Counted from the stretch's first letter, positions 1,146-25,950 are shown. The stretch is DNA of 64,000 nucleotides from Gemmatimonadota bacterium (GCA_039589875.1 JBDHGL010000017.1:5875-69874); one strand, 5' to 3'. The notes: a model not told the origin generated them from the letters alone. Program-made: numbers and translations.

Positions 1146-1934
1146 ATGGCTGATAAGCTCATCGACTACGAAGCGCAGGACGGGATCGGCATCATCACGA
1201 TGGACGACCCTCCGGCCAATACCTACACGCACGACATGATGCGCCAGATGGATGATGCCATCCTGGAGGCGCGCTTCGACGAGGCCGTTCACGTCATCCT
1301 GATCCGCGGCGCCGGCGAGAAGTTCTTCTCCGCCGGAGCCAACATCGGCATGCTTCAGACGGCAAACCCGTACTTCAAGTACTACTTCTGCCTGCACGCC
1401 AACGAGACGCTGAACCGTCTCGAGCAGACGCCGAAGATCGTCATCGGTGCGCTGAATGGGCACACCGTGGGCGGAGGGCTCGAGATCGCCCTCGCCTGCG
1501 ACCTCCGCGTCGCCAAGAAGGGCGGCGGCAAGATCGGTCTTCCGGAGGTCACGCTCGGCGTGCTCCCGGGCACGGGCGGCACGCAGCGACTCGGCCGCAT
1601 GCTGGGCAAGTCCAAGTCGATCGAGCTGATGGCCACGGGCCGCACCTTCGAGTTCGAAGAAGCGCTCGACCTCGGTATCGTCAACCAGGTGCTGGACGGC
1701 GAGGACTTCATGGCCGAAGCGATGGAGTATGCCCGGCAGTTCGCGCCGCCGGGGAAAGCGTCGAAGGCGGTCGGACGGATCAAGCGCGCGGTGTGCAGCG
1801 GCATCGAGGTGCCTTTCTCAGAGGGCCTCGCGATCGAACGGGAGATGCAGCAGCAGCTCTTCGAGTCGGCCGACGCTCGCGAAGGGCTGGACGCCTACGT
1901 CGAGAAGCGTAAGCCGGAGTTCGCCGGCCGCTGA
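1146..1934 (+). CDS. enoyl-CoA hydratase/isomerase (crotonase family)
   Basis: 262 aa; crotonase-fold motifs (..ILIRGAGEKFFSAGANI.., GHTVGGGLEIALACDLRVA). Confidence 0.9.
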   Translation: MADKLIDYEAQDGIGIITMDDPPANTYTHDMMRQMDDAILEARFDEAVHVILIRGAGEKFFSAGANIGMLQTANPYFKYYFCLHANETLNRLEQTPKIVIGALNGHTVGGGLEIALACDLRVAKKGGGKIGLPEVTLGVLPGTGGTQRLGRMLGKSKSIELMATGRTFEFEEALDLGIVNQVLDGEDFMAEAMEYARQFAPPGKASKAVGRIKRAVCSGIEVPFSEGLAIEREMQQQLFESADAREGLDAYVEKRKPEFAGR

Positions 1935-2064
1935 GCTTCGCCCAACCCACATCTTTCCGCGGGTTAACCGCTCGTCTTCGAGGCGGGCGGCCCGCCGGAC
2001 ATGCCGGTAGGAAACGCTCCGGCCGCGGCTCTTCGATCCGTGGCCGAGCTCAAAGGAGATCGTC

Positions 2065-3540: not shown

Positions 3541-4751
3541 ACGATCGCGACCCCGTCGTCATCGGCGCCGTGCGGACGCCTGTGGGCCGGCACGGCGGTG
3601 CCCTGTCCGGCGTTCGGCCGGACGACCTCCTGGCCATCGCGATTCGAGCTCTCGTGGACCGGACGGGGGTTCCAGCGGACCGGGTTGAGGACGTGATCGC
3701 GGGCGCAGCGAACCAGGCAGGAGAAGACAACCGGAATGTCGCCCGTATGGCCGGCCTCCTCGCCGGACTGCCGATCGAAGTGGCCGGACAAACCGTGAAC
3801 CGTCTTTGTGGGTCCGGTCTTCAGGCCATCGTTTCGGCCGGCCACGCGATCCGGGCGGGCGAGGGGGATGTGTTCATCGCCGGCGGCGTGGAGAGCATGT
3901 CCAGGGCTCCGTGGGTGATGCTCAAGCCCGCTGCCGGATTCTCGCGGGTGCCCCCACCGACGGCCGATACGACCGTCGGCTGGCGGTTCATCAACCCGAA
4001 GATGCCGGAGGAGTGGACCATATCGCTCGGCGAGACGGCGGAGGTCGTGGCCGACGAGCATGGAGTCACTCGGGAAGAGCAGGACGCCTTCGCGCTGGAG
4101 AGTCAGCGACGGACGGCGAGAGCGATGGAAGAGGACCGATTCGCGGCGGAGATCGTCCCGGTCGAAGTGCCACAGCGAAAAGGCGACCCACTCGTCGTGA
4201 ACCGCGATGAGCACCCGAGGCCCGAGGTCACCTCGGAAGGGCTCGGAAAGCTCCGGCCGGCGTTTCGCAAAGGCGGCACGGTCACGGCCGGTTCCGCGTC
4301 GGGAATCAACGACGGCGCTGCCGCGGTGCTCCTCACCAGCCGTGAGGTTGCGCGCGAGCTCGGCCTCCAGCCGATGGCGCGGCTCGTTGCCTCAGCCGTC
4401 GCGGGCGTGGATCCGTCGCGGATGGGGATCGGCCCCGTACCGGCAACCCGGAAAGCTCTGGAGCGGGCGGGGCTCACCGTGGCGGACCTGGACCTGGTCG
4501 AGCTGAACGAGGCTTTCGCGGCGCAGGCGCTACCCTGCATTCGGGAGCTTGGGCTCGATCCGGAGAAGGTGAACGTGAACGGAGGCGCGATCGCGCTCGG
4601 ACACCCGCTTGGATGCACCGGTGCCAAGCTGTTCACGACGCTCGTGCACGAGCTGGATCGACGGGACGACCGGACCGGCCTCGTCACCATGTGCATCGGC
4701 GTGGGCCAGGGGATCGCCACCCTGGTGCACCGCGAGTCATCGGACGGATGA
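3522..4751 (+). CDS. acetyl-CoA C-acyltransferase (thiolase II, PcaF/PaaJ-like)
   Basis: 409 aa; thiolase N- and C-terminal signatures ([29 protein letters not shown]); 19-nt overlap with upstream ALDH. Confidence 0.9.
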
Positions 4752-5626
4752 GCGAGGATAACGGCGTGAACGACGAAGCCCGCATCCTGGTCTCCGTGGA
4801 CGGAGCCGTCGGCACACTGACGCTCAACCGCCCGGAGAAGCTCAACTCCTTCGTCGACACCATGCGTGACGAGCTGGCTGAGGGGCTGGAGAGCCTCGCT
4901 CGGGACGATCGCGTGCGCGCGGTGATCGTAACCGGCCGCGGCCGGGCTTTCTGTACCGGAGCGGACATCCGCTACCTGTCCGAGATGGTCGAAAGCGACC
5001 GGTCGGAGGAGTTTCGCAGCCTCGTCGAGGCGGGGCGGCGAGTGGTCTTGACGATCGCCGAGATGCCCAAGCCGGTCATCGCTGCGATCAACGGCCCGGC
5101 CGCTGGAGGAGGCGCCAATCTGGCGCTGGCCTGCGATCTCAGATGGGCCTCCGATCGGGCATCGATCGGCCAGACGTTCAGCAATATCGGGCTGCACCCC
5201 GACTGGGGGGGAGCCTACTTCGTCCCCCGCCTCGTGGGACCGGCGCGCGCCGCCGAGCTCTTTTTCCTCGGGGAAATGGTGGATGCGCAGACGGCCCTGG
5301 AGATCGGACTGTTGAACCGCGTCGTGCCGCACGACGATCTGATGGATGACGTTCGACAGTTGGCGGAACGCCTTGTTGCCCGACCCGCTCTGGCCGTTCG
5401 GCTGGCGAAGCAGGCGGTTCGACGGAGCCTGGCAGCCGACATCGAGGAGATGCTGCAATACGAACTCGAGGCACAGGCGGCATGCTTCCGCACCGCCGAC
5501 GCCCTCGAGGGAACCCGGGCGTTTCTGGAGAAGAGAGCTCCCCGGTTCGGCGGTCGCTCGGCCGAAGAAGCTTCAGGCGAGAAAGATCTCGCCGCCGCAG
5601 CCGCCGCCGCGGACGAGGCGCGATGA
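4748..5626 (+). CDS. enoyl-CoA hydratase/isomerase
   Basis: Crotonase fold ([37 protein letters not shown]); ATG overlaps thiolase stop (ATGA); track ORF 4613 has a spurious N-extension. Confidence 0.85.
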
Positions 5627-6162
5627 GGGAGGACGGCGGGCTGCGCGAAGCGACCGAGAGCGACCTCGATGAGCTGGTTGCTCTGTGGATCCATTACATC
5701 CGGGACCACCGGCACAACCCCGCCTACAACCGCGTGGCGCGTACCGGGTTCGTGAGTCGGCGAGCCGCGTTCGCGAACGACATCAGCGACGAAGCGGCGG
5801 CCGTTTTCGTGGTGGCGAGGGAGGATGGCGGTTTGGATGGCATGATCACGTGCCGGACCGAGGGGAACCTGCCCTACTTCCAGCCGCACCGGATCGGCCG
5901 GATCCAAACGCCCTATGTCCGGCCCGACGCCCGCAAGAAGGGTAATCTGAAGAAGCTGTTGACGGCCGCGTACCGGTGGGCACGCGAGCGGGAACTCCTC
6001 GAAGTCCGGCTGTATGTCGGTGCCGACAACGTCCTGGCCAACGTGATCGCCGAGGAGCTCGGATTCGACGCCGTTGGAGTCGTCCGGCGAAAGGCGATCG
6101 ACTGGAGTCGCCCACCGGAGCAACAGATCCGAAAACCGGGGGGACCTGACCATGAACGCTGA
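5623..6162 (+). CDS. GNAT family N-acetyltransferase
   Basis: 179 aa from internal ATG overlapping upstream stop (ATGA); acetyl-CoA binding-like motif (RPDARKKGNLKKLL); N-extended track ORF rejected. Confidence 0.65.
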   Translation: MREDGGLREATESDLDELVALWIHYIRDHRHNPAYNRVARTGFVSRRAAFANDISDEAAAVFVVAREDGGLDGMITCRTEGNLPYFQPHRIGRIQTPYVRPDARKKGNLKKLLTAAYRWARERELLEVRLYVGADNVLANVIAEELGFDAVGVVRRKAIDWSRPPEQQIRKPGGPDHER

Positions 6163-7018
6163 GGGAGCGCCGGGACCGGCACTCGCTGTAATCGGGGCCG
6201 GCACCATGGGACATGGGATAGCTCAGGTGGCGGCGCTGGCGGGCTACGACGTCAGCCTGATCGATGTGAGCGAAGAAGCGCTGGAGAAGGCGCTGGGCCG
6301 GGTCCGCGCTCAGCTCGACAGAGGCGTCGAGCTCGGGAAAGTAGAGCCCGGAGCACGCGACGCGGCCGTCGGCCGGCTCACTGCATCGTCCGATCCCGCT
6401 GCGATGCGCGGGGCCGAGATCGTCGTCGAAGCCGTTCCGGAGATCATCGACCTCAAGCGCCAGATTCTAGCGAGCGCAGCGGAACGCGTGGACCCGGACA
6501 CCCTCCTCGCAACGAACACCTCTTCCTTGTCGATCACCGCCATTGCGGACGCCGTGCCCGGACCGGAGCGCGTCATCGGCATGCACTTCTTCAACCCGGT
6601 CCACATCATGGAGCTCGTCGAGATCGTGCGCGGAGACCGCACCGGTCCCGACGCTGTCGAACGAGCCCGTGACGTCGCGGAGAAGCTCGGCAAGACGCCG
6701 ATCGTGGTGAGCGACTCACCGGGCTTCGCATCCTCGCGTCTCGGTATCGCCCTGGGTCTGGAAGCGATTCGAATGGTCGAGACCGGCGTGGCCACGGCAG
6801 AGGATATCGATCGGGCGATGGAGCTCGGTTATCGGCATCCCATGGGTCCCTTGCGACTCACGGACCTGGTGGGCCTGGACGTGCGGCTCGAGATCGCCCG
6901 CTACCTGCACCGCGAGCTGGGAGATCGCTTCCAGCCGCCGGAGCTGCTCGAGCGGATGGTGGAGGAAGGAAACCTCGGGAAGAAGGCCGGTCGAGGCTTC
7001 TACGTCTGGCGAGAATGA
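6152..7018 (+). CDS. 3-hydroxyacyl-CoA / 3-hydroxybutyryl-CoA dehydrogenase
   Basis: Rossmann GxGxxG (VIGAGTMGHGIA) plus 3HCDH C-terminal domain (..GFASSRLG.., GPLRLTDLVGLDV). Confidence 0.9.
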   Translation: MNAEGAPGPALAVIGAGTMGHGIAQVAALAGYDVSLIDVSEEALEKALGRVRAQLDRGVELGKVEPGARDAAVGRLTASSDPAAMRGAEIVVEAVPEIIDLKRQILASAAERVDPDTLLATNTSSLSITAIADAVPGPERVIGMHFFNPVHIMELVEIVRGDRTGPDAVERARDVAEKLGKTPIVVSDSPGFASSRLGIALGLEAIRMVETGVATAEDIDRAMELGYRHPMGPLRLTDLVGLDVRLEIARYLHRELGDRFQPPELLERMVEEGNLGKKAGRGFYVWRE

Positions 7019-7062
7019 ATCCGGCGCTCGCAGAGCGCCGGCAGTGATAAGGAGCGATCGAG

Positions 7063-7842
7063 ATGAGTGACGTTCTGCTGAAGGAGAAACTGGACGGCCG
7101 CGTGGCCCTCCTCACCATAAACCGACCCGACAAGCTGAACGCCCTGAACGGCGAGGTTCGCTGCGCCCTGATCGGGGCTCTCGAGGAGTTTCGGACCGAC
7201 GACGATGTCCGAGTCGTCGTGCTGACGGGGGCAGGCGAGAAGGCGTTTATCGCCGGAGCCGACATCGGTGAATTCAAGGACGCGAGGCCGACCGAGCAGT
7301 ATCGGTCCATGCAGGCGGGCAACATCTACTCGGCCATGGAGGCTTTCCCCAAGCCGATCATCGCCATGATTAACGGCTACTGCCTGGGCGGGGGCTGCGA
7401 GCTATCGATGGCCTGCGACATCCGGATCGCCTCGGACCGGGCCCGGATCGGCCAGCCGGAGATCAACCTCGGGCTGATTCCGGGGGGCGGCGGAACCCAG
7501 CGACTGCCGCGCCTCGTCGGCGAGGGCCGCGCCATGAAGATGATTTACACGGGAGAGATGATCTCCGGAGAAGATGCCGGAAGGATCGGCCTGGTCGACG
7601 AGGTCGTCCCGGCAGACGAGCTGAAAGAGCGCACGCTGGAGATCGCCCGCGTGATCGGCTCTCGGTCACCGATCGCACTCCAGGCAGCCAAGGAGAGCAT
7701 CCTGGCGGCCCGCCGCATGCCGATGGACCAGGGCCTGCAGTTCGAGCGGGCCTGGTTCAGCCTGCTCTTCTCGACCAGCGACATGGACGAGGGCGTGAGC
7801 GCCTTCTTGGAGAAGCGACCGGCTGAGTTCACGGGCGATTAG
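7063..7842 (+). CDS. enoyl-CoA hydratase (short-chain crotonase)
   Basis: 259 aa; crotonase motifs (VVVLTGAGEKAFIAGADI, INGYCLGGGCELSMACDIRIA). Confidence 0.9.
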   Translation: MSDVLLKEKLDGRVALLTINRPDKLNALNGEVRCALIGALEEFRTDDDVRVVVLTGAGEKAFIAGADIGEFKDARPTEQYRSMQAGNIYSAMEAFPKPIIAMINGYCLGGGCELSMACDIRIASDRARIGQPEINLGLIPGGGGTQRLPRLVGEGRAMKMIYTGEMISGEDAGRIGLVDEVVPADELKERTLEIARVIGSRSPIALQAAKESILAARRMPMDQGLQFERAWFSLLFSTSDMDEGVSAFLEKRPAEFTGD

Positions 7843-9709: not shown

Positions 9710-11236
9710 TTACGCCACCGCGTAGCGGCTCGTGACGTCCTGATCGGAGGGAGCGGCAAGCAGCCGGTACTCATCCGCCTTGATCAGCGGATCGTCGCGA
9801 AAGTCGAGATCGATCTTGCACTCCCGCTTCATGATCTTGATGAATTCGGGTTCCTTCTCCAGCAGATAGAGCGCCACATCCGGGTGGATCCGGACGGTGA
9901 GCCTCCGGTTCTCGCCGGCCGACGCCGCACGCCGGATCGCCTGCTCGACCCTCCTGAGCACGGTCTCCGGTGAGAAGACGCGGCCCGTGCCATCGCAGTA
10001 CGGACAGGGCTCGGACAGCATGTGGTACAGGCTCGGCCGCACGCGCTGGCGGCTCATCTCGAGCAGCCCGAGATCTGAGATCCCGAACACCTTGGTGCGC
10101 GCCCGGTCCCTGCCGACGTGGGACTTCATGGCCTGTTGGACTCGGTCGCGAAACTCCGGCTCGTCCATGTCGATGAAATCGACGACGATGATCCCACCGA
10201 TATCCCGAAGGCGGAGCTGTCGGGAGACCTCGGCTGCGGCGTCCAGGTTGGTGCGGAGGATCGTCTGTTCCGCATCCTTTTTCCCGGTGTAGCGACCGGT
10301 GTTCACATCGATCGCTACGAGCGCCTCAGTGGCCTCAATCACGATGTGCCCACCGGATGCGAGCTCCACCTTGCGGCCGTACGCCCGGAGGATCTGCTCC
10401 TCGATCCCCAGCTCGTCGAATATCGGCGTCGCCCCACCATAGACCTTCACCCGATCGAGCAGCTCAGGACTCACCTGGCCGAGGTACGATTTGATCTCGC
10501 GAGCCAGCTCGCGCGAATCGACGGTGAGCGAGTCGATCCGATCGCTGAACAGGTCGCGGATGATCCCGCTCGTCAGCTTGGCTTCCTCGTGAACGAGGGC
10601 CGGTGCTTCGACCCCCTTCATGGCCTCCTGGACCTTCTCCCAAGCGGTGAGCAGCGAGGTGAGCTCCTGCTTGAAGGCCTTCTTGGTGAGCTCCTCGCCC
10701 ACGGTGCGAACGATCACACCGCCCGGCTTCTTGGCCAGCATGTCCCGAGCCATCTTCCGCAGTCGCGATCGCTCGTCGCGATCGTCAATCTTCCGGCTCA
10801 CTCCGACATGGTCGCTGCCCGGCATGTATACGAGGAAGCGTCCTGGCAGGGATACCTGGGTCGTGACGCGCGGACCCTTGGTGCTGATCGGCTCCTTCGT
10901 AACCTGTACGAGGAGATCCTGACCGCGGGACACGAGATCCTGGATTGGCGGATACCGACCGGATCGCCGTCCGCCGCCGCCACCGCCGTTATCCTCGTCG
11001 TCGTCTTCGCGCTCGGCAGCGTCGGAGGCGTGGAGGAAGCCCGACTTCTCGGTGCCGATATCGACGAAGGCCGCCTGGATGCCGGGAAGGACGGCGTCTA
11101 CACGACCGAGGTATACATCGCCGACCATGCGCTGAGCGTCCTCACGCTCGTGCATGAGCTCGACCAGACGGCCGTCCTCGAGGATCGCGACCCGCGTCTC
11201 TTGACCGGCCGCGTTGATGACGATCTCGCGCCGCAT
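9710..11236 (-). CDS. rng: ribonuclease G (RNase E/G family)
   Basis: 508 aa; S1 domain then RNase E/G catalytic core (DVYLGRV, IVVDFIDM, zinc-link CPYCDGTGRV). Confidence 0.9.
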   Translation of the reverse strand: MRREIVINAAGQETRVAILEDGRLVELMHEREDAQRMVGDVYLGRVDAVLPGIQAAFVDIGTEKSGFLHASDAAEREDDDEDNGGGGGGRRSGRYPPIQDLVSRGQDLLVQVTKEPISTKGPRVTTQVSLPGRFLVYMPGSDHVGVSRKIDDRDERSRLRKMARDMLAKKPGGVIVRTVGEELTKKAFKQELTSLLTAWEKVQEAMKGVEAPALVHEEAKLTSGIIRDLFSDRIDSLTVDSRELAREIKSYLGQVSPELLDRVKVYGGATPIFDELGIEEQILRAYGRKVELASGGHIVIEATEALVAIDVNTGRYTGKKDAEQTILRTNLDAAAEVSRQLRLRDIGGIIVVDFIDMDEPEFRDRVQQAMKSHVGRDRARTKVFGISDLGLLEMSRQRVRPSLYHMLSEPCPYCDGTGRVFSPETVLRRVEQAIRRAASAGENRRLTVRIHPDVALYLLEKEPEFIKIMKRECKIDLDFRDDPLIKADEYRLLAAPSDQDVTSRYAVA

Positions 11237-11248
11237 CGATTCGGCGCG

Positions 11249-12481
11249 CTAGGTCCGGAAGTGTTCCAGGATGTCTCGCGAGATCACGATCTTCTGGATC
11301 TCGCTCGTTCCTTCTCCGATCTCAGTGATTTTTGCGTCTCTCATCATCCGTTCGACCGCGTATTCGCGTGAGTAGCCGTACCCGCCGTGGAGCTGCACAG
11401 CCTTCGTCGTGACATCCATGGCCGCCTCCGAAGAGAACAGCTTGGCCATGGATGCCTCGGTCTTGTGAGGCTTGCCCTCCATACGGAGGCGAGCGGCGTG
11501 ATAGGTCATGAGGCGCGATGCATGAATCTGCGTGGCCATCTCGGCCAGCATGAACTGCACGCCCTGGAAACGATTGATCTTCTTACCGAACTGCTCGCGC
11601 TCATCCGTGTATCTGGCGGCCAGCTCGAACGCCCCCTGGGCGATGCCGAGCGCGTGCGCGGCGATCCCGATCCGGCCACCGTCCAGCGTGTCCAGAAAGA
11701 CGGGAAAGCCCTTGTTCTCTTCCCCCAACATGTTTTCGGCCGGCACCTCCACGTCCTCGAGAATGAGCTCACGAGTGTCGGAGGCGTTCCAGCCCAGCTT
11801 GCGGAGTTTCTGGCCGGATGCGAAGCCAGCCATCGGCTCGAGCTCGTCGCTGTGGCCGAAACCCAGGCCCTTCGCGACATCGAGATCACAGGTTTCCTTC
11901 GTGAGGATGAAGGCGCTGATCCCGCGGTTTCCCTCTCCGGGCGACGTCGATGCGGCAAGAACGAACACCTCGCCGACCCCACCGTGCGTGATCCATGTCT
12001 TCTGACCGTTGAGGACGTACCGGTCACCCTTACGCTCGGCGACCGTCTGCGTCCCACCGGCATCGGAACCGGCGTTCGGCTCCGTGAGCGCCAAGCCGCC
12101 CAGCACCTGGCCGCCAGCCAGCGGCGTCAGATATTTGCGCTTCTGCTCCTCCGTTCCCCAGCGGTGGATTGGCGTGCAGCAAAGTGATATGTGGGCGCCG
12201 ATCGTAATCGAGTGGCTGGCATCGATCCTGGCGAGCTCTTCGCCGGCGATCACGCTGGCGAGCAGATCCATGCCGGCGCCGCCGTACTCCTCCTCGAATG
12301 GAATCCCGAACAGGCCGAGCTCCGCCATCTTGGCGGCGTTCTCCCACGGGAACTCCTCGGTCTCATCGTGATGCTCCGCGACCGGAGCGATCTCCGATTC
12401 TGCAAACTCGCGAACCATGTCACGCATCATGACGTGATGGTCCTCGAGATAAACGCCCAAATCGCCGGATATCCCGGCCAT
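11249..12481 (-). CDS. acyl-CoA dehydrogenase
   Basis: 410 aa ACAD fold; GGGAGG RBS 7 nt upstream. Confidence 0.9.
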
Positions 12482-12571
12482 CTATGTCCTCCCGACCCTC
12501 GATATTCGGATCTGCGAAACCTCCCAATGTACGAGGCGGGCCGGGCCCAGCAAACTCGCCGGCTCAAAAGT

Positions 12572-14017
12572 TCAGCGGCTGGCGGACCCTCCAGAGCAAC
12601 GATCACACCCGGTGCAGCGAGGCACGCTCTCACCGAAATACCTGGCGATCGTGGCGCGACGACAGAGGCAGGCGGTTACGTATTTTCTCATTTGAGCGAA
12701 CCGCCAAGACGCTCGGCGCCGACCGCGCGTCACGACGCTGATGTCGATCCGACGCTCTGAGCCTGGCCCTCGGATGTAAAGCACACGCGGGCCGGTCGAG
12801 CGCGACCCTCTCCGCACGCAACCGAACTCCTCGAGCAGGCGAAGCGCGGCCCGAAGCTCGGGCTCCGGCACATGCCTCAGATTGCGGCGCAGCATACGCA
12901 ACGGCACCGGCCCGGGAGGGAGCGCCTGGTACACGCGCAGTAGGCTCCGTCCGGAGGGCCAGCTCTGCCGGATCAGACTGTCCTGAACACGGCCGTCGGT
13001 ACTTCCCGCGATCAGCAGACACTTCGCCGGCTCACCATCTCGGCCTGCCCTCCCGGCCTGCTGAACGTACGCCTCCAGCGATCCGGGCAAACCCAGGTGG
13101 CAGACGAGCCGGACGGAGGGATGGTCGATGCCCATGCCGAAAGCACTGGTCGCGCACACGGCTCGCAGCTGGCCGGCCAGAAAGCGCACCTGGATGTCCG
13201 ATCGAGTCTTTGCGGGAAGCCCCGCGTGATAGGGCTCGACCGCGATCCCTCGCCGCTTCAGAACTTCGCACAGCCGAACCGATCGTTCCCGGGTGGTCAC
13301 GTAGACAATCGCAGGCCCATCGGCTTCGCGAACAGCGGCGATGACCTGCCTGACTCCCTGATCCAAGCGTTTTGTCTGCGTCACCCGGTAGCTCAGGTTC
13401 CGCCGGTTGACGCTGTTGACGATCCGGCGCGGCGACCTCAGCCGCAGCGACTCGACGATGTCGTCCCGTGTCTCGGGCGTAGCCGTCGCCGTGAGCGCCA
13501 GGCACGGCGGGGCACCGGTGATGCGGCGAAAGGGAGCGATCCGGCGGTAGGCGGGACGGAAGTCGTGCCCCCACTCGCTGATGCAGTGAGCCTCGTCGAC
13601 GGCCAGCCGGGCCACGCTCCGGCCGGCGAGGAGCTCATGAAAGCCCCTCGCCTGTAGCCGCTCCGGCGACACATAGAGCAGCCTGATCTCCCCCGAGCGA
13701 ACGGCGCGGGAGAGGCGCACCCGTTCGGACGGCACCGTGACGCTGGTGAGCGCGGCAGCCGGAATGCCCCGCCGTGAAGCTGCGCTCACCTGATCTTGCA
13801 TCAGCGAGATGAGGGGCGAGACGACGATCGTCAGACGGGAGTCGAGCAGCGCAGGGACCTGGAAGCAGATTGATTTTCCGCCCCCCGTCGGCAGAACTCC
13901 GAGAACGTCCCCACCCGACAGGACGGCGCGGAGGACTCTCTTTTGAGCCGGGCGGAATTCCCGGAAGCCGTAGTGCCGGCGAAGGACAGCGAGTGCAGGC
14001 TCGAGATCCGGCGGCAT
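12572..14017 (-). CDS. recQ: RecQ-family ATP-dependent DNA helicase (short form, no HRDC)
   Basis: Helicase motifs (LPTGGGKS, VDEAHCISEWGHDFRP) and RecQ zinc-binding C-terminus (CRR..C..CDRC). Confidence 0.9.
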   Translation of the reverse strand: MPPDLEPALAVLRRHYGFREFRPAQKRVLRAVLSGGDVLGVLPTGGGKSICFQVPALLDSRLTIVVSPLISLMQDQVSAASRRGIPAAALTSVTVPSERVRLSRAVRSGEIRLLYVSPERLQARGFHELLAGRSVARLAVDEAHCISEWGHDFRPAYRRIAPFRRITGAPPCLALTATATPETRDDIVESLRLRSPRRIVNSVNRRNLSYRVTQTKRLDQGVRQVIAAVREADGPAIVYVTTRERSVRLCEVLKRRGIAVEPYHAGLPAKTRSDIQVRFLAGQLRAVCATSAFGMGIDHPSVRLVCHLGLPGSLEAYVQQAGRAGRDGEPAKCLLIAGSTDGRVQDSLIRQSWPSGRSLLRVYQALPPGPVPLRMLRRNLRHVPEPELRAALRLLEEFGCVRRGSRSTGPRVLYIRGPGSERRIDISVVTRGRRRASWRFAQMRKYVTACLCRRATIARYFGESVPRCTGCDRCSGGSASR

Positions 14018-14748: not shown

Positions 14749-15483
14749 TCATACCGTGAGCTCCAGGCCGTCCTCCGCGCACTCCAGCTCGAGCGAACCG
14801 GCGCGAGCCAACATCTCGTCGCTCATGTGGGTGCAGACCAGCCGGTCGCAGCTCAGCTCGTCTCGCTTGCCAAGAAGCGTGACGTAGTCGGTGTGAAGCG
14901 GAACCGTTCGATCGAAGGTGTACGCCTCGCAGATGAACAGATCGGCACCTTCCGCGGTCCGGAGAAGCACATCCGTCCACTCGGTGTCCCCGGAGTAGGC
15001 GATCACCTTGCCGGCGATCTCGATTCGCAGGGCGTGCGGGAGGGAAGCGGGAGCGTGAAGCACTTGGAAAGCCGTGACGACACAAGCATCCACCGGCACG
15101 GGTTCTTCGGCCACCCACTCGACGAAACGCAGATCGTACAGAGGCGTGACCTGAGAGGAGCCTGGAAACAGGACTTCCATCGCGGCCTTGACCCGCCCCT
15201 CGACCCCCGGAGGACCGGCGATCGTGAGCGGCTCGGTGCGCCGCGAGACGAGCTGCGTGTCGATCAGGAAGAACGGGATCCCACCGAAGTGATCCCCGTG
15301 GAAATGCGTGACGAGGATCGCGTCGATCTCGTTCGGCGGGACGCCCCAGCGCTTCATCGCGATGAGGGCCGAGGCTCCACAGTCGATCAGAAAGCGTCCC
15401 CCGGGATGGCGCACGTCGAAGCAAGTGAAAAAGCGGCCGCCGCTGGCGAAGGCGTCGCCGCTGCCAAGAACGCGGAGCGTCAC
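14749..15483 (-). CDS. MBL-fold metallo-hydrolase
   Basis: 244 aa from a GTG start; HxHxDH (THFHGDHFGG) and downstream His/Asp ligands; C-terminal part of a composite 487-aa track ORF. Confidence 0.7.
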   Translation of the reverse strand: MTLRVLGSGDAFASGGRFFTCFDVRHPGGRFLIDCGASALIAMKRWGVPPNEIDAILVTHFHGDHFGGIPFFLIDTQLVSRRTEPLTIAGPPGVEGRVKAAMEVLFPGSSQVTPLYDLRFVEWVAEEPVPVDACVVTAFQVLHAPASLPHALRIEIAGKVIAYSGDTEWTDVLLRTAEGADLFICEAYTFDRTVPLHTDYVTLLGKRDELSCDRLVCTHMSDEMLARAGSLELECAEDGLELTV

Positions 15484-15494
15484 CCGGCCGTCGG

Positions 15495-16061
15495 TCAAGC
15501 GCCCCCTACCTTCGCGTGGCGAAAACAGTCGACCGTGTGATCGTTTACCAGACCGGCCGCCTGCATGAACGAGTAGCAGGTGGTCGGTCCGACAAAGCGG
15601 AAGCCCCGCTGCCTCATATCGCGGCTCATCGCACGGGATTCGGCGGTCTCTGCAGGAAGCTCCGACAGCTCCCGCCATCCGTTCACGATCGGCTCTCCGC
15701 CGACGAAGCTCCACACGTAATCCGCGAAGCTCCCGATCTCGGACTGGACCTCCAGGACCTTTCGGGCGTTGGTGATCGTCGACTCGATCTTGCCTCTGTG
15801 GCGCACGATCCCCGCGTCGCCCAGAAGCTGCTCGACCTTCCGGTCGTCGAACGCCGCGACGTTGGACGGTTCGAAGCCCCCGAACGCCCGCCGGTAGTTC
15901 TCGCGCTTGTTCAGGATCGTCGACCAGCTGAGGCCGGCCTGCGCGCCCTCCAGGGTAATGAGCTCGAATAGTCGTCTGTCGTTGCGCAGCGGGACGCCCC
16001 ACTCGAGATCGTGGTACTCGATCATCAGCGGCGACCCCCCGGCCCAGCTGCATCGCGTCAC
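15495..16061 (-). CDS. tag: DNA-3-methyladenine glycosylase I
   Basis: Near-colinear with E. coli Tag (..RCSWAGGSPLMIEYHDLEWGVP..YSFMQAAGLVNDH..C..H); GTG start at 16061 overlaps the upstream stop (GTGA); alternative ATG at 16025. Confidence 0.85.
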   Translation of the reverse strand: MTRCSWAGGSPLMIEYHDLEWGVPLRNDRRLFELITLEGAQAGLSWSTILNKRENYRRAFGGFEPSNVAAFDDRKVEQLLGDAGIVRHRGKIESTITNARKVLEVQSEIGSFADYVWSFVGGEPIVNGWRELSELPAETAESRAMSRDMRQRGFRFVGPTTCYSFMQAAGLVNDHTVDCFRHAKVGGA

Positions 16062-16986: not shown

Positions 16987-17754
16987 TCATCGATCCAGAA
17001 AGCGCCGGATTCCGGCCTGGCAATCCGGCGTGAGCCTGGCCAGCGCGTTCACGTCCGCCCCCGTGCGGATGGACGCCTCGAAGCTGGCTCCATCGATCTG
17101 GTACAACAGCGACTTGGAGAGGGCCAACGCGGAGGCGCTGTGTTCGGCGAGCCGCGCGGCGAACTGCTGCGCCAGCCCTCGGAATCCCTCAGGCGAGAAG
17201 ACCCGGTTTACCAGACCGTACTCGCGCGCGGTTTCCGCGTCGATGTGTTCGCCAAGGGCCACCAGCTCGAAAGCCTTCTTTTCACCGACCTCCCTCCGAA
17301 GCATCGCCATGACCATCGCCGGCACGAATCCGAGGCGGACCTCAGGGTAGCCGAGCCGAGAGTCCGCGGCGGCCACGACCAGATCACACGCCGAGGCAAG
17401 CCCGCAGCCTCCGGCCAGTGCGCGACCATGCACGGCCGCCACCACCGGCTTGCTCAGGCGCCGGAGCAGGATGAACAGATCGCCGAGCGACTCGGCGTCT
17501 GCCAGGCTCTCGAGAACCCCGCCCTCCACCGACGCCTGCACTTCCCGCAGGTCGGCGCCGGCGCAGAAGTCGGGTCCCTCGCCTGCCAGAAGGACGACCC
17601 GAACACGCTTATCGGCATCGGCCTGAGCGAGCGCTTCCTTCAGCTCGGACACGAGCGCCGCGTTGAGCGCGTTGCGCGCCTCGGGACGGTTCAGCGAGAT
17701 CAGGAGCACTCCGCTGTCGCCGTCGATCTCGGTCAGGATCTGCTCGTAGCTCAT
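16987..17754 (-). CDS. enoyl-CoA hydratase/isomerase (AtuE/LiuC-like position)
   Basis: Crotonase motifs (VVLLAGEGPDFCAGADL, HGRALAGGCGLASACDLVVA). Confidence 0.85.
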   Translation of the reverse strand: MSYEQILTEIDGDSGVLLISLNRPEARNALNAALVSELKEALAQADADKRVRVVLLAGEGPDFCAGADLREVQASVEGGVLESLADAESLGDLFILLRRLSKPVVAAVHGRALAGGCGLASACDLVVAAADSRLGYPEVRLGFVPAMVMAMLRREVGEKKAFELVALGEHIDAETAREYGLVNRVFSPEGFRGLAQQFAARLAEHSASALALSKSLLYQIDGASFEASIRTGADVNALARLTPDCQAGIRRFLDR

Positions 17755-17772
17755 TTCTCCGCTCGAAATCTC

Positions 17773-18135
17773 CTAGTCTCCGGCGAACCCGGAGACCTCA
17801 TCCGCTTCGCGGACCAGCTCATCCGGGACGTCCAGCTCCATGCGGAGCAACGCAGCCCCGAACGTCTTGCCCTGCGCGTCCAGCATCAGCGAAACCGTCC
17901 CGCCTCCGCCCAGGGACTCGTGGAGAAGAAAGTTGAGGGCCTTCAGGTTCGGGAGCTCGTATCGATCCACCGGCCCTTTACAGATGCCTGTGAAGTGCTC
18001 CTTTACACGAGCGGCCGTAACTTCTGTCACCAGAATATTATAAATCGGCTCTGTGTAGGCGATCAAACCGACGTTCGCCGTGTCTCCCTTATCTCCGGAG
18101 CGGGCGAAGCCGACCCGCCAGAGAGGGACTCTCAT
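17773..18135 (-). CDS. DUF4387 protein (C-terminal module of AtuA family)
   Basis: 120 aa; 4-nt overlap with upstream DUF1446 gene; typical DUF1446/DUF4387 split pair. Confidence 0.65.
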   Translation of the reverse strand: MRVPLWRVGFARSGDKGDTANVGLIAYTEPIYNILVTEVTAARVKEHFTGICKGPVDRYELPNLKALNFLLHESLGGGGTVSLMLDAQGKTFGAALLRMELDVPDELVREADEVSGFAGD

Positions 18136-19505
18136 GCCTCCGTCACCTCGACCTGGACGACGCTCTCCACCGCGTCGCGGTCGATTAGCGCGGGCCAGTA
18201 CGCCATCACATCGTGGATCTTCGGTCGGCCGGCCGCGAACCCGGTTACGCTCGGAGGGCCGGCCAAGATCAGTGGTGCCAGCTCTCGCGTGAAACGCTCG
18301 ACTTCGGCCCGCTTCTCACTGCGGACGCTGACCAACAGTCCTACCTCCGGCAGCTCCGGATCGGGAGAGCCGGCCAGCGGGCCATGGCACGCTCCCGCAC
18401 CCACGTACTCCGTCCGGATCTCCTCGAACCCGAGGCCGAGCCGTTCGAGCCTCCCACGCAACACGTGATCCGCCCGGACCGCTTTCTCGTAGGCTTCCGG
18501 ATAGGCATAGGTGAGACTGCCGGTGGCCTTGTAGCCGGCTCGATAGGCGATGGAGACCTTGAGCGATTCGGGCCTTGGGCGCCCTTCGATGCCGGACACA
18601 CGAACGCGGTCGTTGCCGAGGTCGTCCAGCCGGATCGTCGAAAAGTCGGCCACGCAGTCCGGTGTGATGTATTCCGAAGGGTCCCCCATCTCGTAGACCA
18701 GCTGCTCGGTGACGCTAGCCCAGTTGACGCGCCCCCCCAGTGATGGATGCTTCGTGACCACGAAGCTCCCGTCGGCCGATGCCTCGATGATCGGATATCC
18801 CGCCTCGACGAGGTCGACCTCGCGCCAGCGAAACAGCGTGTTTCCGCCGCAAGCCTGAGCGCCGCACTCGTTGATGTGACCGGCAACCACGCCAGCGGCG
18901 ATCCGGTTCCAATCGTCGTCGGCCCACCCGAACTCATGGATCAGGGGAGCGTAGGTCAGCGCCGTGTCCGTCGAGCGACCAGTCACGACGAGGTCCGCGT
19001 CCTGCCGGAGGGCCTCGAGGATCGGGCCCGCGCCCATGTACGCGTTGGCCGCCGTCACCCGCTCGCGCACCGCGCTGAGCGGCTCTCCCGTCTCCATGTT
19101 GAGAAGCTCGTGGCCGGCCGACATCAGCTCATCCAGCCGGCTCATCAGGTCGTCGCCCCGAACGATCGCGATCCTCACAGGCCGCTCCGTGTAGACCTCC
19201 TGGAGGCGCTCCACCAGAGCATCTCTGCAAGCATCCGGATTGACGCCACCCGCGTTGGTCACGACCCGGACTCCCCGTGCTACCAGGTCGGGCGCGAGGT
19301 CGATGATCAGGTCGACGAAGTCTCGCGCATATCCGGCGGACGGATGCCGCTCGCGCTGCTTCTCCAGGATCGACATGGTGATCTCGGCCAGATAATCCAG
19401 CATGATGTAGTCGATCGGACCACGCCGGATCTGGAGCTTCGGGGCCTCTTGCCAATCGCCCCAGAAGCCCTGTCCGGAGGCTACTCGAACCTTGTGCTCA
19501 GGCAT
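18132..19505 (-). CDS. acyclic terpene utilisation AtuA-family protein (DUF1446)
   Basis: 457 aa; AtuA N-terminal conserved block (QGFWGDW.., IDYIMLDYLAEITMSIL). Confidence 0.75.
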   Translation of the reverse strand: MPEHKVRVASGQGFWGDWQEAPKLQIRRGPIDYIMLDYLAEITMSILEKQRERHPSAGYARDFVDLIIDLAPDLVARGVRVVTNAGGVNPDACRDALVERLQEVYTERPVRIAIVRGDDLMSRLDELMSAGHELLNMETGEPLSAVRERVTAANAYMGAGPILEALRQDADLVVTGRSTDTALTYAPLIHEFGWADDDWNRIAAGVVAGHINECGAQACGGNTLFRWREVDLVEAGYPIIEASADGSFVVTKHPSLGGRVNWASVTEQLVYEMGDPSEYITPDCVADFSTIRLDDLGNDRVRVSGIEGRPRPESLKVSIAYRAGYKATGSLTYAYPEAYEKAVRADHVLRGRLERLGLGFEEIRTEYVGAGACHGPLAGSPDPELPEVGLLVSVRSEKRAEVERFTRELAPLILAGPPSVTGFAAGRPKIHDVMAYWPALIDRDAVESVVQVEVTEA

Positions 19506-21111
19506 CGTCGGGAAGCGTGAAGGCGCCCACGTGGGGTGCCGGGTTGTTCAGAGCCGCTCGGAAGGCGAGGTCGAGCACGCTGCGCGTATCCTCGGGCCGG
19601 ATGATCGCATCGACGAAACCTCTCGCCGCCGCGTACCGGGCATCGAGTTGCTCGTCGTATTCCTCACGCGTCTGCTCGATGGCCGTCGCCGTCTCCTCGT
19701 CGAGCGGCTCGCCCTCCTGTGCCGCGTCGAGCTTCGGGCCGTAAATGGCACGGACTGCCGACTCCCCTTCCATCACTCCCATCCTGCCCGTAGGCCACGT
19801 GAAGATGAAGTCCGGGTCGAAGCCCTGACCGGCCATGGCGTAGTATCCCGCGCCGCTCGCGTGATTGACCGTAATCACGATCTTCGGCACTCGGGCCGTT
19901 GCCATCGCCTCGACCATCCTGGCGCCGGCCCGGATGATTCCGGAATGCTCGGCCTCCTTACCCACCATGAAGCCGCTCACATCCTGTACGAACAGGAGGG
20001 GGATGCGGTGACGGTCGCACACGTCCATGAAGTATGCCGTCTTCTCAGCCGTGTCCGTGTAGACGATGCCGCCGAACTTCGGAGGCCCGCCACCCTTGAC
20101 GGGATACATCCCCCGGCGGTTTGCCATTACGCCGACCGAGCGTCCCTCGATGCGTGCTACGGCGGTCAGCAGCTCCGGTGCATGATCGGCCTGGAACTCG
20201 TCCCAACCGCCTCCGTCCAGGAACGTCCCTAGCAGGGCTTCCATGTCGTACGGCTGCCGGTGGTTGGCCGGCATGATCTCGTAGGTGTCCTCGGCGGAGC
20301 GCTCCGGCGGGCTCGGCTCCGCTTGGGGCGGCGGCTTCAGCGGCGCCGGTAGCTCCGCAACCAGCTCCCGTAGCCTATTCAGGCACTCATCGTCGTCCTT
20401 CACCTTGTAATGCGCGACGCCACTGATCTCCGTGTGGGTCGAAGCGCCGCCAAGCTCCTCGCGCCCCACCTCCTGACCGGTGGCGCCTTTGACGAGGTTG
20501 GGACCGCCGAGCCCCATGAAGCTCGTCCCCTCGACCATCACGATCACGTCCGAGAGCGCAGGAAGGTAGGCGCCGCCCGCGATACACGAGCCCATCACGG
20601 CCGAGAGCTGCGGCACTTTCAGATAGTGCCGCATGATCGAGTTGTAGTAGAAGATCCGGCTCGCTCCGTACTTGCCGGGGAAGACGCCGCCCTGGTAGGG
20701 CAGGTTCACCCCCGCGGAGTCGACCAGATATATGATCGGGATGCGGCAGCGCATCGCGATCTCCTGGGCGCGGAGCATCTTGGTGATCGTTTCGGGCCAC
20801 CAGCTGCCGGCCTTCACCGTGGCGTCGTTGGCGACGATCACGACTTCCCGGCCGCACACCTCGCCGACCCCGGTCAGCACCCCTGCCGCCGGCGCGCGTC
20901 CATCGTACTGGTCGAACGCAACGAGCAGGCCGATCTCCAGGAACCCGCCTCCGGGATCGAGCAAACGCTCGACACGCTCGCGCGCGGTCAGCTTCCCCTG
21001 GGTGTGCTGCCGCTCGATCCTCTCGGGTCCGCCGCCCTGGCGAAGCCGGTCCTCCAGCTCTTGGAGCTGGGACACGAGCTGGGCCATGCGCGAGTTCGCG
21101 GCGGTAGTCAC
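19498..21111 (-). CDS. acyl-CoA carboxylase carboxyltransferase (beta) subunit (AtuC/MccB/PccB family)
   Basis: 537 aa two-domain carboxyltransferase (N-CT and C-CT). Confidence 0.9.
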
Positions 21112-21560
21112 GAAGCCTCGGGCGCCTCGCCCACCGAATCTCGCTTCTCCACCCAGGCCCGGATGTACTCCACGGCTTCCGACGTGGCGGTGCCCGGGGT
21201 GAAGAGCTGGCCGATCCCGATTCGCTCGAGCTCCTCGGCATCCTCGGCCGGAATGATGCCGCCGCCGGTGACCAACACGTCGGCCATTCCCTGCTCGTCC
21301 ATTATCCGCTTGACCCTGGGGAAGAGCGTCATGTGGGCCCCGGAGAGGATCGACAGCGCGACGACGTCCACATCCTCCTGAAGCGCCGTGCTGGCAATCA
21401 TTTCCGGCGTTTGGTGCAGCCCGGTGTAGATCACCTCCATGCCGGCGTCCCGGAGAGCCGCCGCCATCACCTTGGCGCCGCGATCGTGTCCATCCAGGCC
21501 CGGCTTGGCTACGAGAACCCTGATTCTCCGTTCTGTCATCACCACCACGGCGTTGATCAT
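21108..21560 (-). CDS. cobalamin-binding small subunit of an acyl-CoA mutase (B12-binding domain)
   Basis: B12 DxHxxG-type motif ([23 protein letters not shown]); start ambiguous (ATG 21560 or 21539). Confidence 0.8.
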
Positions 21561-21701: not shown

Positions 21702-22799
21702 ATGGCCAGACTCCGAACCGCCGCCGAGAGCCTCCCACCGCGCCGTAGCGTGCTGCTGAGCGCCGCCGCCTTCGTGGTCGCGGTCGCCGGCATGCGCGCG
21801 GCCGCAGACATCCTCGTCCCGTTCCTCCTCGCCGTGTTCATCGCGATCCTCTGCTCCGAGCCGATGGGCCTCCTCCGGCGGCTCGGGGTGCCGCGTTGGA
21901 TCGCGGTGACGGTCGTCGTTCTCGGAGTGTTGGGCCTGGGCGCAGCGGTGACCACCCTGCTCGGTACATCGCTCATCGATTTCACGCGCACCCTGCCCCT
22001 CTATCAGCAGCGTCTCGAATCGGAGACCGAGGCGCTTTTGGGGTGGCTACGGGGGCTCGGGTTGGACGTCTCGGGAGACCTACTGCTCAGCTATTTCGAG
22101 CTCGGCCGGATCCTCCAGCTGGTCGGCGGCATTCTCACGGGACTCCGGGGCCTGGTGACGGATGCCTTCCTCATCATCCTCACCATGATCTTCATTCTCA
22201 TCGAGATGTCCAGCTTCCCGGCCAAGCTCGGCGCCGCCCTGGGGGAAGCCGATGCCTCCGAGGCGAGCGGCGCTTTCTCCGACTTCGTGGTGGACGTCCG
22301 GAAGTACGTCGGCCTCAAGACGCTGGTGAGTCTCGGAACAGGAGCACTCGTGGCCGCGTGGCTTGCGTTCCTCGGAGTCGACTACTCCCTGCTCTGGGGC
22401 GTCGTCGCCTTTCTGCTGAACTACGTGCCCACGATCGGGTCGTGGATCGCGGCGTTGCCGGCCGTCCTGTTCGCGTTTCTCCAGCTCGGCCCGGGAGCGG
22501 GGCTGGCGGCGGCGCTCGGCTACCTGGTCGTGAACACTCTGATGGGTAACGTGGTCGAGCCGCGCGTGATGGGCCGGGGCATGGGGCTATCCACCCTGGT
22601 CGTCTTCCTCTCCCTGATCTTCTGGGGATGGGTGCTCGGCCCAATCGGGATGCTGCTCTCCGTCCCGCTCACCGTGATCCTCAAGCGGGCGCTGGAGCTT
22701 CAGGACAGCACGCGATGGATCGGTATCCTTCTCGGTCCCGCCATGCCGGCGGGCACGCCGGTAGCCTTGCCCGTCACGGAGGAGGCCTCGGCGGGCTAG
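21702..22799 (+). CDS. AI-2E family transporter (PerM-like)
   Basis: 365 aa, 8 TM helices, AI-2E family architecture; track ORF N-extension rejected. Confidence 0.8.
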   Translation: MARLRTAAESLPPRRSVLLSAAAFVVAVAGMRAAADILVPFLLAVFIAILCSEPMGLLRRLGVPRWIAVTVVVLGVLGLGAAVTTLLGTSLIDFTRTLPLYQQRLESETEALLGWLRGLGLDVSGDLLLSYFELGRILQLVGGILTGLRGLVTDAFLIILTMIFILIEMSSFPAKLGAALGEADASEASGAFSDFVVDVRKYVGLKTLVSLGTGALVAAWLAFLGVDYSLLWGVVAFLLNYVPTIGSWIAALPAVLFAFLQLGPGAGLAAALGYLVVNTLMGNVVEPRVMGRGMGLSTLVVFLSLIFWGWVLGPIGMLLSVPLTVILKRALELQDSTRWIGILLGPAMPAGTPVALPVTEEASAG

Positions 22800-22843: not shown

Positions 22844-23101
22844 ATGGATCGGGACGATCTGAAAGACCTGGCGCAGCGACTGGAGCGTCAGCGCGACGAG
22901 CTCAGGGTGCAGGCGCACCTGGCGAAGGCCGAGGCGCGGGAGGAGTGGGAGGAGCTGGAGGAGAAGTGGGAACAGCTGAAAGGGAAGCTGAGGACGGCCG
23001 GCGAGGAAGCGGATGACGCCTCGGATGACGTCAAGGCGGCCGCGTCTCTGCTGATGGACGAGCTCAAGAAAGGCTACGACCGGATCCGCAGTCGCCTGTA
23101 G
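22844..23101 (+). CDS. hypothetical small acidic coiled-coil protein (85 aa)
   Basis: Heptad-like E/K/R/L-rich sequence; GAGGG 8 nt upstream of ATG. Confidence 0.4.
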   Translation: MDRDDLKDLAQRLERQRDELRVQAHLAKAEAREEWEELEEKWEQLKGKLRTAGEEADDASDDVKAAASLLMDELKKGYDRIRSRL

Positions 23102-23128: not shown

Positions 23129-24847
<1,719 letters not shown>

Positions 24848-24906: not shown

Positions 24907-25950
24907 TCAGCCCTCCGACAGTCGGTCGGCCACCGAATAGGGAGTGATCCGGCCGGTGAGAAGATCCTCCAGGAGATCCCCTTTCCGGGCGTTCCAAGCC
25001 TTCAATGTGGAAGACTCTGCTCGGCGCAGCAGGATCCGCCTGGTCTGGTCCAGCAGGGCGTTGGCCCTTCGTACCGCCAGCTCGCCCGACTCGGTCAGGG
25101 AGCCGAAGTGCTCATCCAGTCGCTTCGCGAGCTCCTCGACGCCCTCTCCCTGCGTGGCGATCGTCTTGAAAACAGGGACATCCCAGTCGCCTGACTCGCT
25201 CTCCTCGTCTTCCTTCCCCTGGTCCGTCTCCACCTCCGCGCTGCCGTGGGCGCGGGCGTGGTGACGTGGAATCCCACGCAACGCCCTTCCCGCCCGGATG
25301 GTCTTCATTACCTCGATTTCCTTGACCAACCGGTCGGCTCCGGGACGGTCCGCCTTGTTCACGCAGAATAGATCCGCCACCTCCATCAGCCCCGCCTTCA
25401 TCGCCTGAATTCCATCCCCGGATTCGGGGACCAGAACCACAACCGTCGTGTCGGCCGCGACGGCAATTTCAAGCTCGGACTGGCCCACCCCCAACGTCTC
25501 GAGGATCACCCGGTCGAACCCGAACGCATCCATGAGATCGGCCGCCTCTGTCGCGGCGGTGGCGAGCCCTCCGAGTGATCCGCGGCTCGCCATCGAGCGG
25601 ACGAACATGCCCGGCTCGACCGCGAGCTCCGCCATCCGTATCCGGTCTCCCAGAAGCGCCCCGCCGGTGAACGGGCTCGTCGGGTCGACGGCAATCACCC
25701 CCACCCGGGCTCCTTCGTCACGGAACAGCCTTGCTAGACCCGCCGTGAGGGTGGACTTCCCGGCCCCCGGTGGACCCGTAATCCCGATGCGGCGCGCCCG
25801 GCCCACTGCAGAGCGCAGCTCGTCCAGAAGACCCTCGAAGCCCGGAGCCTGGTCTTCGACGATCGAGATGGCTCGAGCCAGGGCGCGCGGATCACCGGCT
25901 TGAAAGGATTTGACCAGGACCGGCGGGCCGCCGGAAGGAAAGGCACGCAT
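24907..25950 (-). CDS. meaB: methylmalonyl-CoA mutase-associated GTPase MeaB (ArgK)
   Basis: P-loop GITGPPGAGKST and MeaB G-motifs. Confidence 0.9.
   Translation of the reverse strand: MRAFPSGGPPVLVKSFQAGDPRALARAISIVEDQAPGFEGLLDELRSAVGRARRIGITGPPGAGKSTLTAGLARLFRDEGARVGVIAVDPTSPFTGGALLGDRIRMAELAVEPGMFVRSMASRGSLGGLATAATEAADLMDAFGFDRVILETLGVGQSELEIAVAADTTVVVLVPESGDGIQAMKAGLMEVADLFCVNKADRPGADRLVKEIEVMKTIRAGRALRGIPRHHARAHGSAEVETDQGKEDEESESGDWDVPVFKTIATQGEGVEELAKRLDEHFGSLTESGELAVRRANALLDQTRRILLRRAESSTLKAWNARKGDLLEDLLTGRITPYSVADRLSEG

Follow-up and report, generated by a model that had tools for sequence, protein, structure and literature searches.

The Liu pathway of Pseudomonas and its relatives (leucine/isovalerate utilization, LiuA-E) removes a β-methyl branch by means of an acyl-CoA dehydrogenase (ACAD), a carboxylation of the methylcrotonyl-CoA carboxylase (MCC) type, hydration by a crotonase and C-C cleavage of an intermediate of the 3-hydroxy-3-methylglutaryl-CoA (HMG-CoA) type. 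The Atu cluster of P. aeruginosa (atuABCDEFGH) and the atu-like clusters of other bacteria combine AtuA, fused or split, with a carboxyltransferase (CT), an ACAD and a crotonase. The role of AtuA (DUF1446) has been an open point ever since the atu cluster was described. A tentative assignment makes it the lyase that releases acetate in the Atu pathway (PMC4847356), and the Cml enzyme of Raoultella planticola (cmlAB) has been described as splitting citramalate directly into pyruvate and acetate (bioRxiv 10.64898/2026.01.16.699985). Here we analyzed a 64,000-nucleotide stretch of Gemmatimonadota DNA (GCA_039589875.1, JBDHGL010000017.1:5875-69874; hereafter the window), in which positions 16987 to 21560 carry genes for a split AtuA pair, a CT, a crotonase and the small subunit of a B12-dependent mutase. 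We read the locus as a catabolic cluster for short branched acyl-CoAs that consists of two modules, an isobutyryl-CoA mutase (ICM) and a set of enzymes for β-methyl-branch removal, and give this reading a probability of about one half.

The source organism is a Gemmatimonadota bacterium, and the AtuA protein of the window is 73-93% identical to proteins from metagenome-assembled genomes of that phylum. The G+C content of the window is 63-68%. Open reading frame (ORF) calls and profile searches confirmed all five domain assignments of the gene run, which lies on the minus strand. Its first gene, icmB, encodes an IcmB-like B12-binding mutase small subunit (21108 to about 21560; TIGR00640, E 3.6e-50, 169 bits against a cutoff of 57), with either ATG 21560 or ATG 21539 as the start codon. 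It is followed by the MccB-like CT (beta) subunit of an acyl-CoA carboxylase (19498-21111; PF01039 Carboxyl_trans, E 1.7e-141), the AtuA large subunit, which resembles the lyase subunit CmlA (18132-19505; PF07287, E 2.9e-138), the CmlB-like DUF4387/AtuA_ferredoxin small subunit (17773-18135; PF23544, E 6.5e-28) and a crotonase-family enoyl-CoA hydratase (ECH) (16987-17754; PF00378/ECH_1, E 3e-51). An earlier sequence-only reading of this DNA had named the same five products, and the profile matches bore it out for every ORF. Its description of five genes overlapping by 4-8 nt held for three of the four junctions (4, 8 and 4 nt, the icmB/CT overlap being 4 nt), but the ECH and DUF4387 genes are separated by an 18-nt gap with no overlap. 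No cobalamin riboswitch or other Rfam element was found within the window, and the promoter and terminator scans of the window stayed at or near chance.

Two further minus-strand genes, which lie about 1.6 kb upstream of icmB, complete the mutase. The first, icmA, encodes an IcmA-like large (substrate-binding) subunit of an acyl-CoA mutase (23129-24847; PF01642, E 5.5e-221), and the second encodes a MeaB-type G-protein chaperone of B12 mutases (24907-25950; PF03308, E 3e-85; TIGR00750, 312 bits against a cutoff of 240.75). The large subunit had been taken for that of methylmalonyl-CoA mutase (MCM) in the sequence-only reading, an assignment that its residues contradict. Tyr89 and Arg207 of MCM are cited as specificity determinants (PMC7238569). 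In alignments with PDB entries, Phe102 of the window mutase fell on Tyr89 and Gln220 on Arg207, within the motifs WTMRLF and YMAQH, respectively. The Tyr89 position, the Y of WTIRQY, was fixed by comparing wild-type P. shermanii MCM (1req) with its Y89F mutant (5req). MCM was thus ruled out by the replacement of the carboxylate-binding Tyr89 and Arg207 with Phe and Gln. The score of the window protein against the NCBIfam MCM equivalog (654 bits) was also under the cutoff of 876. We take Phe and Gln at these two sites to be the signature of ICM.

For comparison across genomes, we used the 80 loci with the closest AtuA relatives in a genome collection, and each count of neighboring genes was limited to the loci with enough flanking sequence. 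WTMRQF (or the RLF variant) and KEY[MI]AQ were present in all 37 orthologous large subunits from the related loci. Because Phe and Gln are kept at the specificity sites throughout, the mutase is predicted to be of the ICM type, with an acyl-CoA lacking a carboxylate as its substrate, most likely isobutyryl-/butyryl-CoA. The sequence resembles IcmA/IcmB of Streptomyces cinnamonensis in its split large and small subunits, in Phe/Gln at both sites and in the adjoining gene for the MeaB-type chaperone, features by which an isobutyryl-CoA mutase is recognized. Unlike that enzyme, the window protein has Leu for the conserved Gln of WTMRQF, and its top solved relative by score was HcmA (546 bits). 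The 2-hydroxyisobutyryl-CoA mutase HcmA/B was nevertheless ruled out, with Ile90 and Asp117 of HcmA aligning with Phe and Ala129 of the window protein. The Leu is residue 101, next to the specificity Phe; the other 36 orthologues have Gln at this position.

Among solved relatives, the CT scored highest against M. tuberculosis AccD1 (409 bits), P. aeruginosa MCC beta (405 bits) and human MCCB (397 bits), and markedly lower against the beta subunits of geranyl-CoA carboxylase (GCC; 298 bits) and propionyl-CoA carboxylase (PCC; about 285 bits). By these scores it is nearest to MCC beta, ahead of PCC or GCC beta. The alignment with biotin-dependent MCC beta subunits covered the full length, at roughly 47-50% identity as read off the alignments, and a check by eye revealed no loss of the conserved glycine-rich motifs. 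Its distinguishing feature is an insertion of about 15 residues (residues ~327-345), which is kept in all 58 orthologues from Gemmatimonadota and Acidobacteriota. Neither the solved MCC beta chains nor the CTs of three atu-like clusters that do include an alpha subunit (L081, L082 and L084) have the insertion. We take it to resemble a loop of E. coli AccA, which serves as a lead only and not as a test. Judged by its sequence, the clade is MCC-beta-like but distinct, with a conserved insertion and no linked alpha subunit.

The sequence-only reading had reported that the window contains no biotin carboxylase or biotin carboxyl carrier protein (BCCP), that is, no alpha subunit, and our searches agreed. 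Neither tblastn with an AccC query entered by hand nor a scan for biotin carboxylase motifs found one in the 64 kb, and the biotinylation motif scan of the window returned nothing but one false match inside a crotonase. Beta subunits that are unlinked to their alpha subunit are common, for example in actinobacteria. In our reading, the alpha subunit would be encoded elsewhere in the genome and act in trans.

The AtuA pair could be related to an enzyme of described activity. Both subunits matched their families with high scores (461.8 bits against a cutoff of 22.8 for AtuA and PF07287; 97.7 bits against 27 for the small subunit and PF23544). The AlphaFold (AF2) model of AtuA (pLDDT 95) had one strong match among solved structures, citramalate lyase chain 9evf_A (TM 0.79/0.80, E 1e-25), and the model of the DUF4387 protein (pLDDT 96) had one significant match, the 105-residue chain 9evf_B of the same entry (TM 0.68/0.76, E 2e-5). 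In each of these fold searches, no second match fell under E 0.001. The AtuA family profile also matched 9erq_A/9evf ('AtuA family protein | citramalate lyase subunit A', cmlA; E 2e-13). PDB searches with the DUF4387 sequence, both as a single sequence and as a profile, gave no match, and CmlB was found by the fold search alone. In the profile alignment, R177, D180, E213, C214, Y271, E272 and D275 of AtuA were aligned with identical residues of CmlA, while His210, invariant in the AtuA family, was aligned with a Lys. The title of 9evf, released in October 2025, describes a complex of citramalate lyase with ADP and pyruvate. With this structural counterpart and the tentative lyase listing (PMC4847356), the sequence-only reading is no longer correct in stating that no biochemical role of AtuA is known.

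CmlAB has two subunits, a large AtuA-family chain some 456 aa long and a small one of some 105 aa, and the window pair shares both folds. It releases acetate from a tertiary hydroxy acid, in parallel to the cleavage proposed for the AtuA pair. In both reactions, a tertiary alcohol would lose its carboxymethyl arm as acetate. The best reading of the AtuA/DUF4387 pair, on the strength of the modeled folds, is a Cml-like lyase of two subunits that acts on the crotonase product. The genomic contexts differ: Cml is found with glutamate mutase and the methylaspartate route (PMC4682846), and the window pair with a CT, a crotonase and an acyl-CoA mutase instead of mal/glutamate mutase. The pair is no orthologue of Cml, though it may function in a similar way. 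In many relatives the DUF4387 domain is fused to the C-terminus of AtuA, and AtuA-ferredoxin-ECH triple fusions also exist (P0234 and P0223), in which the ECH part is closer to the operon crotonase than to the other three of the window. A further fusion protein (P0123, 1257 aa) joins a Ser/Thr protein kinase, TPR repeats and AtuA.

The usual gene order in the related loci was MeaB, mutase large subunit, B12 small subunit, CT, AtuA, DUF4387 and ECH, followed by RecQ and ACAD. The genes were near AtuA in the following proportions: DUF4387 in 64 of 73 loci, CT in 57 of 69, the B12 small subunit in 54 of 64 (in most related loci directly upstream of CT), ECH in 47 of 68, the mutase large subunit in 42 of 57, MeaB in 33 of 54 and ACAD in 28 of 52. 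This co-clustering is far beyond chance. The sequence-only reading had named two findings that would speak against it, orthology of the CT to canonical MccB or PccB with an adjacent alpha subunit, and an AtuA pair that is not conserved in the neighborhood. Neither was the case, since no alpha subunit adjoins the CT and the pair is conserved there, although the CT is closest to MccB. Greater weight can be given to the loci from Pyrinomonadaceae and other Acidobacteriota than to synteny within Gemmatimonadota. In these loci, CT-AtuA-(NUDIX)-DUF4387-(hydrolase)-ECH stands beside a divergent icmB-icmA pair, and the flanking genes (SLT, LpxD and PriA) have nothing in common with those of Gemmatimonadota. 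The association of AtuA pair, CT and B12 mutase that the sequence-only reading proposed is therefore conserved even where the surroundings differ. In one Pyrinomonadaceae locus (L030), the additional genes are a NUDIX hydrolase gene between AtuA and DUF4387 (11356-11958) and an alpha/beta hydrolase gene before the crotonase (12467-13396).

Annotated plasmids provided two further settings. In Rhodococcus, Pseudosulfitobacter and Achromobacter, AtuA pairs belong to atu/liu-like clusters with CT, biotin carboxylase, ACAD and ECH. Unlike the window, these clusters have the alpha subunit beside the CT and no mutase, and their CTs share only 34-37% identity with the window CT and lack its insertion. 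In the second setting, many pairs of AtuA and the small subunit adjoin a citrate:proton symporter (L083, L087 and L088) or a tripartite tricarboxylate transporter (L085 and L086), and CoA-pathway genes are absent. This suggests free hydroxy-tricarboxylate or hydroxy-dicarboxylate substrates for the transporter-linked pairs. Both settings fit a lyase for 3-hydroxy-3-substituted dicarboxylates.

The comparison with the described pathways is one of partial likeness. Relative to the Liu pathway, the window has no LiuD alpha subunit nearby; neither the window nor the related loci contain a lyase motif of the HMGL type found in LiuE, and the AtuA/DUF4387 pair stands in its place. A B12 mutase is also attached. 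The ACAD gene (11249-12481, minus strand), syntenic downstream of the operon, encodes a short-chain acyl-CoA dehydrogenase with recognizable ACAD domains that resembles butyryl-CoA dehydrogenase (Bcd) rather than isovaleryl-CoA dehydrogenase (IVD); its best solved relatives are the butyryl-CoA dehydrogenases 5ol2_C (404 bits), 4l1f (399 bits) and 1buc (347 bits). An extra segment was seen in the middle domain of this ACAD (residues ~195-225), where 115 residues are aligned on a profile of 97 positions. A Pseudomonas-type atu cluster, which unites AtuA with the beta and alpha subunits of GCC, citronellyl-CoA dehydrogenase and a hydratase, was considered and not matched, with the alpha subunit absent in the window and the CT closer to MCC than to GCC beta (405 and 298 bits). 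All the kinds of enzyme are known, and in atu-type clusters AtuA ordinarily stands with a CT and a crotonase, so that what we describe is an undescribed arrangement and not new chemistry. In the coupling that the sequence-only reading pointed out, only the absent alpha subunit and the added mutase are unusual. New are the conserved attachment of an ICM-type mutase, the consistent absence of the alpha subunit nearby, the distinct MCC-beta-like clade and the structural evidence that the split AtuA pair is a counterpart of CmlAB. We found no published description of the cluster in a literature search that fell short of many subscription papers.

Our reading builds on the gene content and its conservation, the mutase residues, the nearest relatives of the CT and the fold match of the AtuA pair; the substrates, the reaction direction, the lyase products and the trans-acting alpha subunit are proposals. 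In the first module, MeaB and the IcmA- and IcmB-like proteins would form an adenosylcobalamin-dependent mutase that most likely interconverts isobutyryl-CoA and n-butyryl-CoA. The mutase would thereby route a valine-type C4 branched unit into straight-chain β-oxidation, where butyryl-CoA would be handled by the Bcd-like ACAD together with the thiolase, hydroxyacyl-CoA dehydrogenase and crotonases encoded at other places in the window. The second module would remove a β-methyl branch as in the Liu and Atu pathways. The MccB-like CT would carboxylate 3-methylcrotonyl-CoA, or a closely similar compound, at its methyl group, with carboxybiotin on a biotin carboxylase/BCCP subunit encoded elsewhere as the carboxyl donor. 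The crotonase would hydrate the product to an intermediate of the HMG-CoA type. AtuA and DUF4387, as a lyase of the CmlAB kind, would then cut off the free carboxymethyl arm as acetate, leaving a 3-oxoacyl-CoA (acetoacetyl-CoA). The end products of either module would be straight-chain C4 esters of CoA. Disposal of valine- or leucine-type units or of iso-fatty-acid ends is a plausible physiological frame, given what is generally known of the lipids of these phyla. A glutaconyl-CoA route, with carboxylation of crotonyl-CoA, hydration and cleavage, was dropped, as its product 3-oxopropionyl-CoA would have no sensible fate.

Several observations weigh against this two-module reading. Searched to a distance of 10 kb by tblastn with the same AccC query, none of the 80 related loci gave an alpha subunit. 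A biotin carboxylase is adjacent in all three AtuA/CT clusters inspected in Proteobacteria and Actinobacteria, which stands in contrast to the 80 loci. The conserved CT insertion is not accounted for by this reading. The ACAD is not IVD-like, with scores of only 254-302 bits against isovaleryl-CoA dehydrogenase. The solved relatives of the operon crotonase are generic crotonases, and neither these nor the profiles revealed a specific affinity to known methylglutaconyl-CoA hydratases. The AtuA pair is only 16-17% identical to CmlAB, whose substrate citramalate is a free acid, whereas a CoA ester is expected here. In about one third of the loci, ECH is not beside AtuA. Three loci (L057, L073 and L077) have a lone AtuA (10001-11344 in each) with 58-59% identity and no DUF4387, CT or ECH within 10 kb; the genes around it are unrelated and encode a kinase/FGE-sulfatase protein, an amino-acid permease, a glycosyltransferase and RecQ. 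Synteny inside the phylum is only a weak sign of function, because housekeeping genes are syntenic too: the shared order in Gemmatimonadota also takes in RecQ, RNase G, L21, PhoH, YbeY and MgtE.

Each of the other explanations that we considered is less well supported than the two-module reading. The best surviving one, though unlikely, joins the two modules into a single linear pathway in which the mutase feeds the carboxylation module; for example, pivalyl-CoA would be rearranged to isovaleryl-CoA, which would then be dehydrogenated, carboxylated, hydrated and cleaved. ICMs of the IcmF type have a side activity on isovaleryl-/pivalyl-CoA. The 4-nt icmB/CT overlap and the adjacency of the two genes in most related loci agree with such a pathway, as does the persistence of the paired modules in Acidobacteriota despite rearrangement and different flanks. 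However, the mutase has Phe and Gln of the ICM type at its specificity sites, and better pivalyl-CoA mutase activity needs a residue smaller than Phe. The syntenic ACAD is of the butyryl-CoA dehydrogenase kind, and pivalate would be a rare substrate for a cluster found across a phylum. The genes and the tight coupling behind the undescribed rearrangement and carboxylation pathway of the sequence-only reading are real, but we found no evidence that both modules act on one substrate in a linear order.

It is also improbable that only an inherited gene order holds the mutase genes next to CT-AtuA-ECH, with no relation between the two sets. The housekeeping genes in the Gemmatimonadota synteny agree with such an origin, and in the window icmA and icmB are already parted by an AI-2E family transporter gene on the plus strand (21702-22799; PF01594, E 6e-57). 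A terminator-like hairpin on the minus strand (23074-23095) lies just 3' of icmA, from a pattern scan in which the number of sites equaled the shuffle expectation. Of the 80 loci, L004 alone shares this insertion, and we regard the transporter gene as outside the pathway. Against a merely inherited order speak the Acidobacteriota, in which the modules are adjacent in another orientation and between flanks unlike those of Gemmatimonadota, and the icmB/CT overlap implies co-translation.

A bolder proposal goes beyond two modules and is quite doubtful. The CT clade, which has the conserved insertion and would use no biotin carboxylase of its own, the ICM-type mutase and the nucleotide-binding AtuA/DUF4387 lyase would together constitute one undescribed pathway of Gemmatimonadota and Acidobacteriota. 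It might involve a biotin-carboxylase-independent carboxylation or decarboxylation for making or breaking iso-branched starter units, with HMG-CoA split into acetate and acetoacetyl-CoA in place of the cleavage by classical HMG-CoA lyase.

Least probable, and indeed very unlikely, is a biosynthetic cluster supplying isovaleryl-/isobutyryl-CoA primers for iso-branched fatty acids by analogy with the alternative isovaleryl-CoA pathway of myxobacteria, with a CT that would dispense with a dedicated biotin carboxylase by acting as a decarboxylase or with a nucleotide-binding AtuA pair: the empty 10-kb surroundings of the 80 loci, the clade-specific CT insertion, the ADP bound by the solved CmlA homologue according to the 9evf title, the ability of ICM to make isobutyryl-CoA from butyryl-CoA and the richness of Gemmatimonadota and Blastocatellia-type Acidobacteriota in iso-C15:0 speak for it, but the CT aligns over its full length with biotin-dependent MCC beta and, by eye, shows no loss of its glycine-rich motifs, the cluster has no reductase for the last biosynthetic step, the ACAD and the neighboring β-oxidation genes are catabolic in type, and unlinked beta subunits are, as noted, common in general.

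Elsewhere in the window, a second acyl-CoA cluster on the plus strand (1146-7842) encodes a crotonase, an aldehyde dehydrogenase (622 bits), a thiolase, a crotonase, a 3-hydroxyacyl-CoA dehydrogenase and another crotonase. By sequence it looks like a butyryl-/valine-type β-oxidation set, which could take up the products of the mutase and the lyase. Two other matches fall on minus-strand genes of the window. Ribosomal protein L21 (8239-8814) is oddly combined with a C-terminal tail that matches the E3-binding domain PF02817 (E 6e-12), and a metallo-beta-lactamase-fold protein (14749-15600) has a sub-threshold match to anti-Pycsar Apyc1 (41 bits against a cutoff of 50). Housekeeping genes are also present in the window.

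The residue assignments correct the routine annotation of the large subunit gene as 'methylmalonyl-CoA mutase'. The fold match of both subunits to CmlAB makes the old guess of AtuA as a lyase testable, and the lyase reading predicts acetate and a 3-oxoacyl-CoA as products, unlike the cleavage by classical HMG-CoA lyase. The MCC-beta-like clade, with its insertion and no linked alpha subunit, is a defined target for biochemistry. The conserved association with an ICM-type mutase, seen in two soil phyla that have been poorly studied, suggests how these bacteria may handle valine- and leucine-type branched units or iso-fatty-acid ends.

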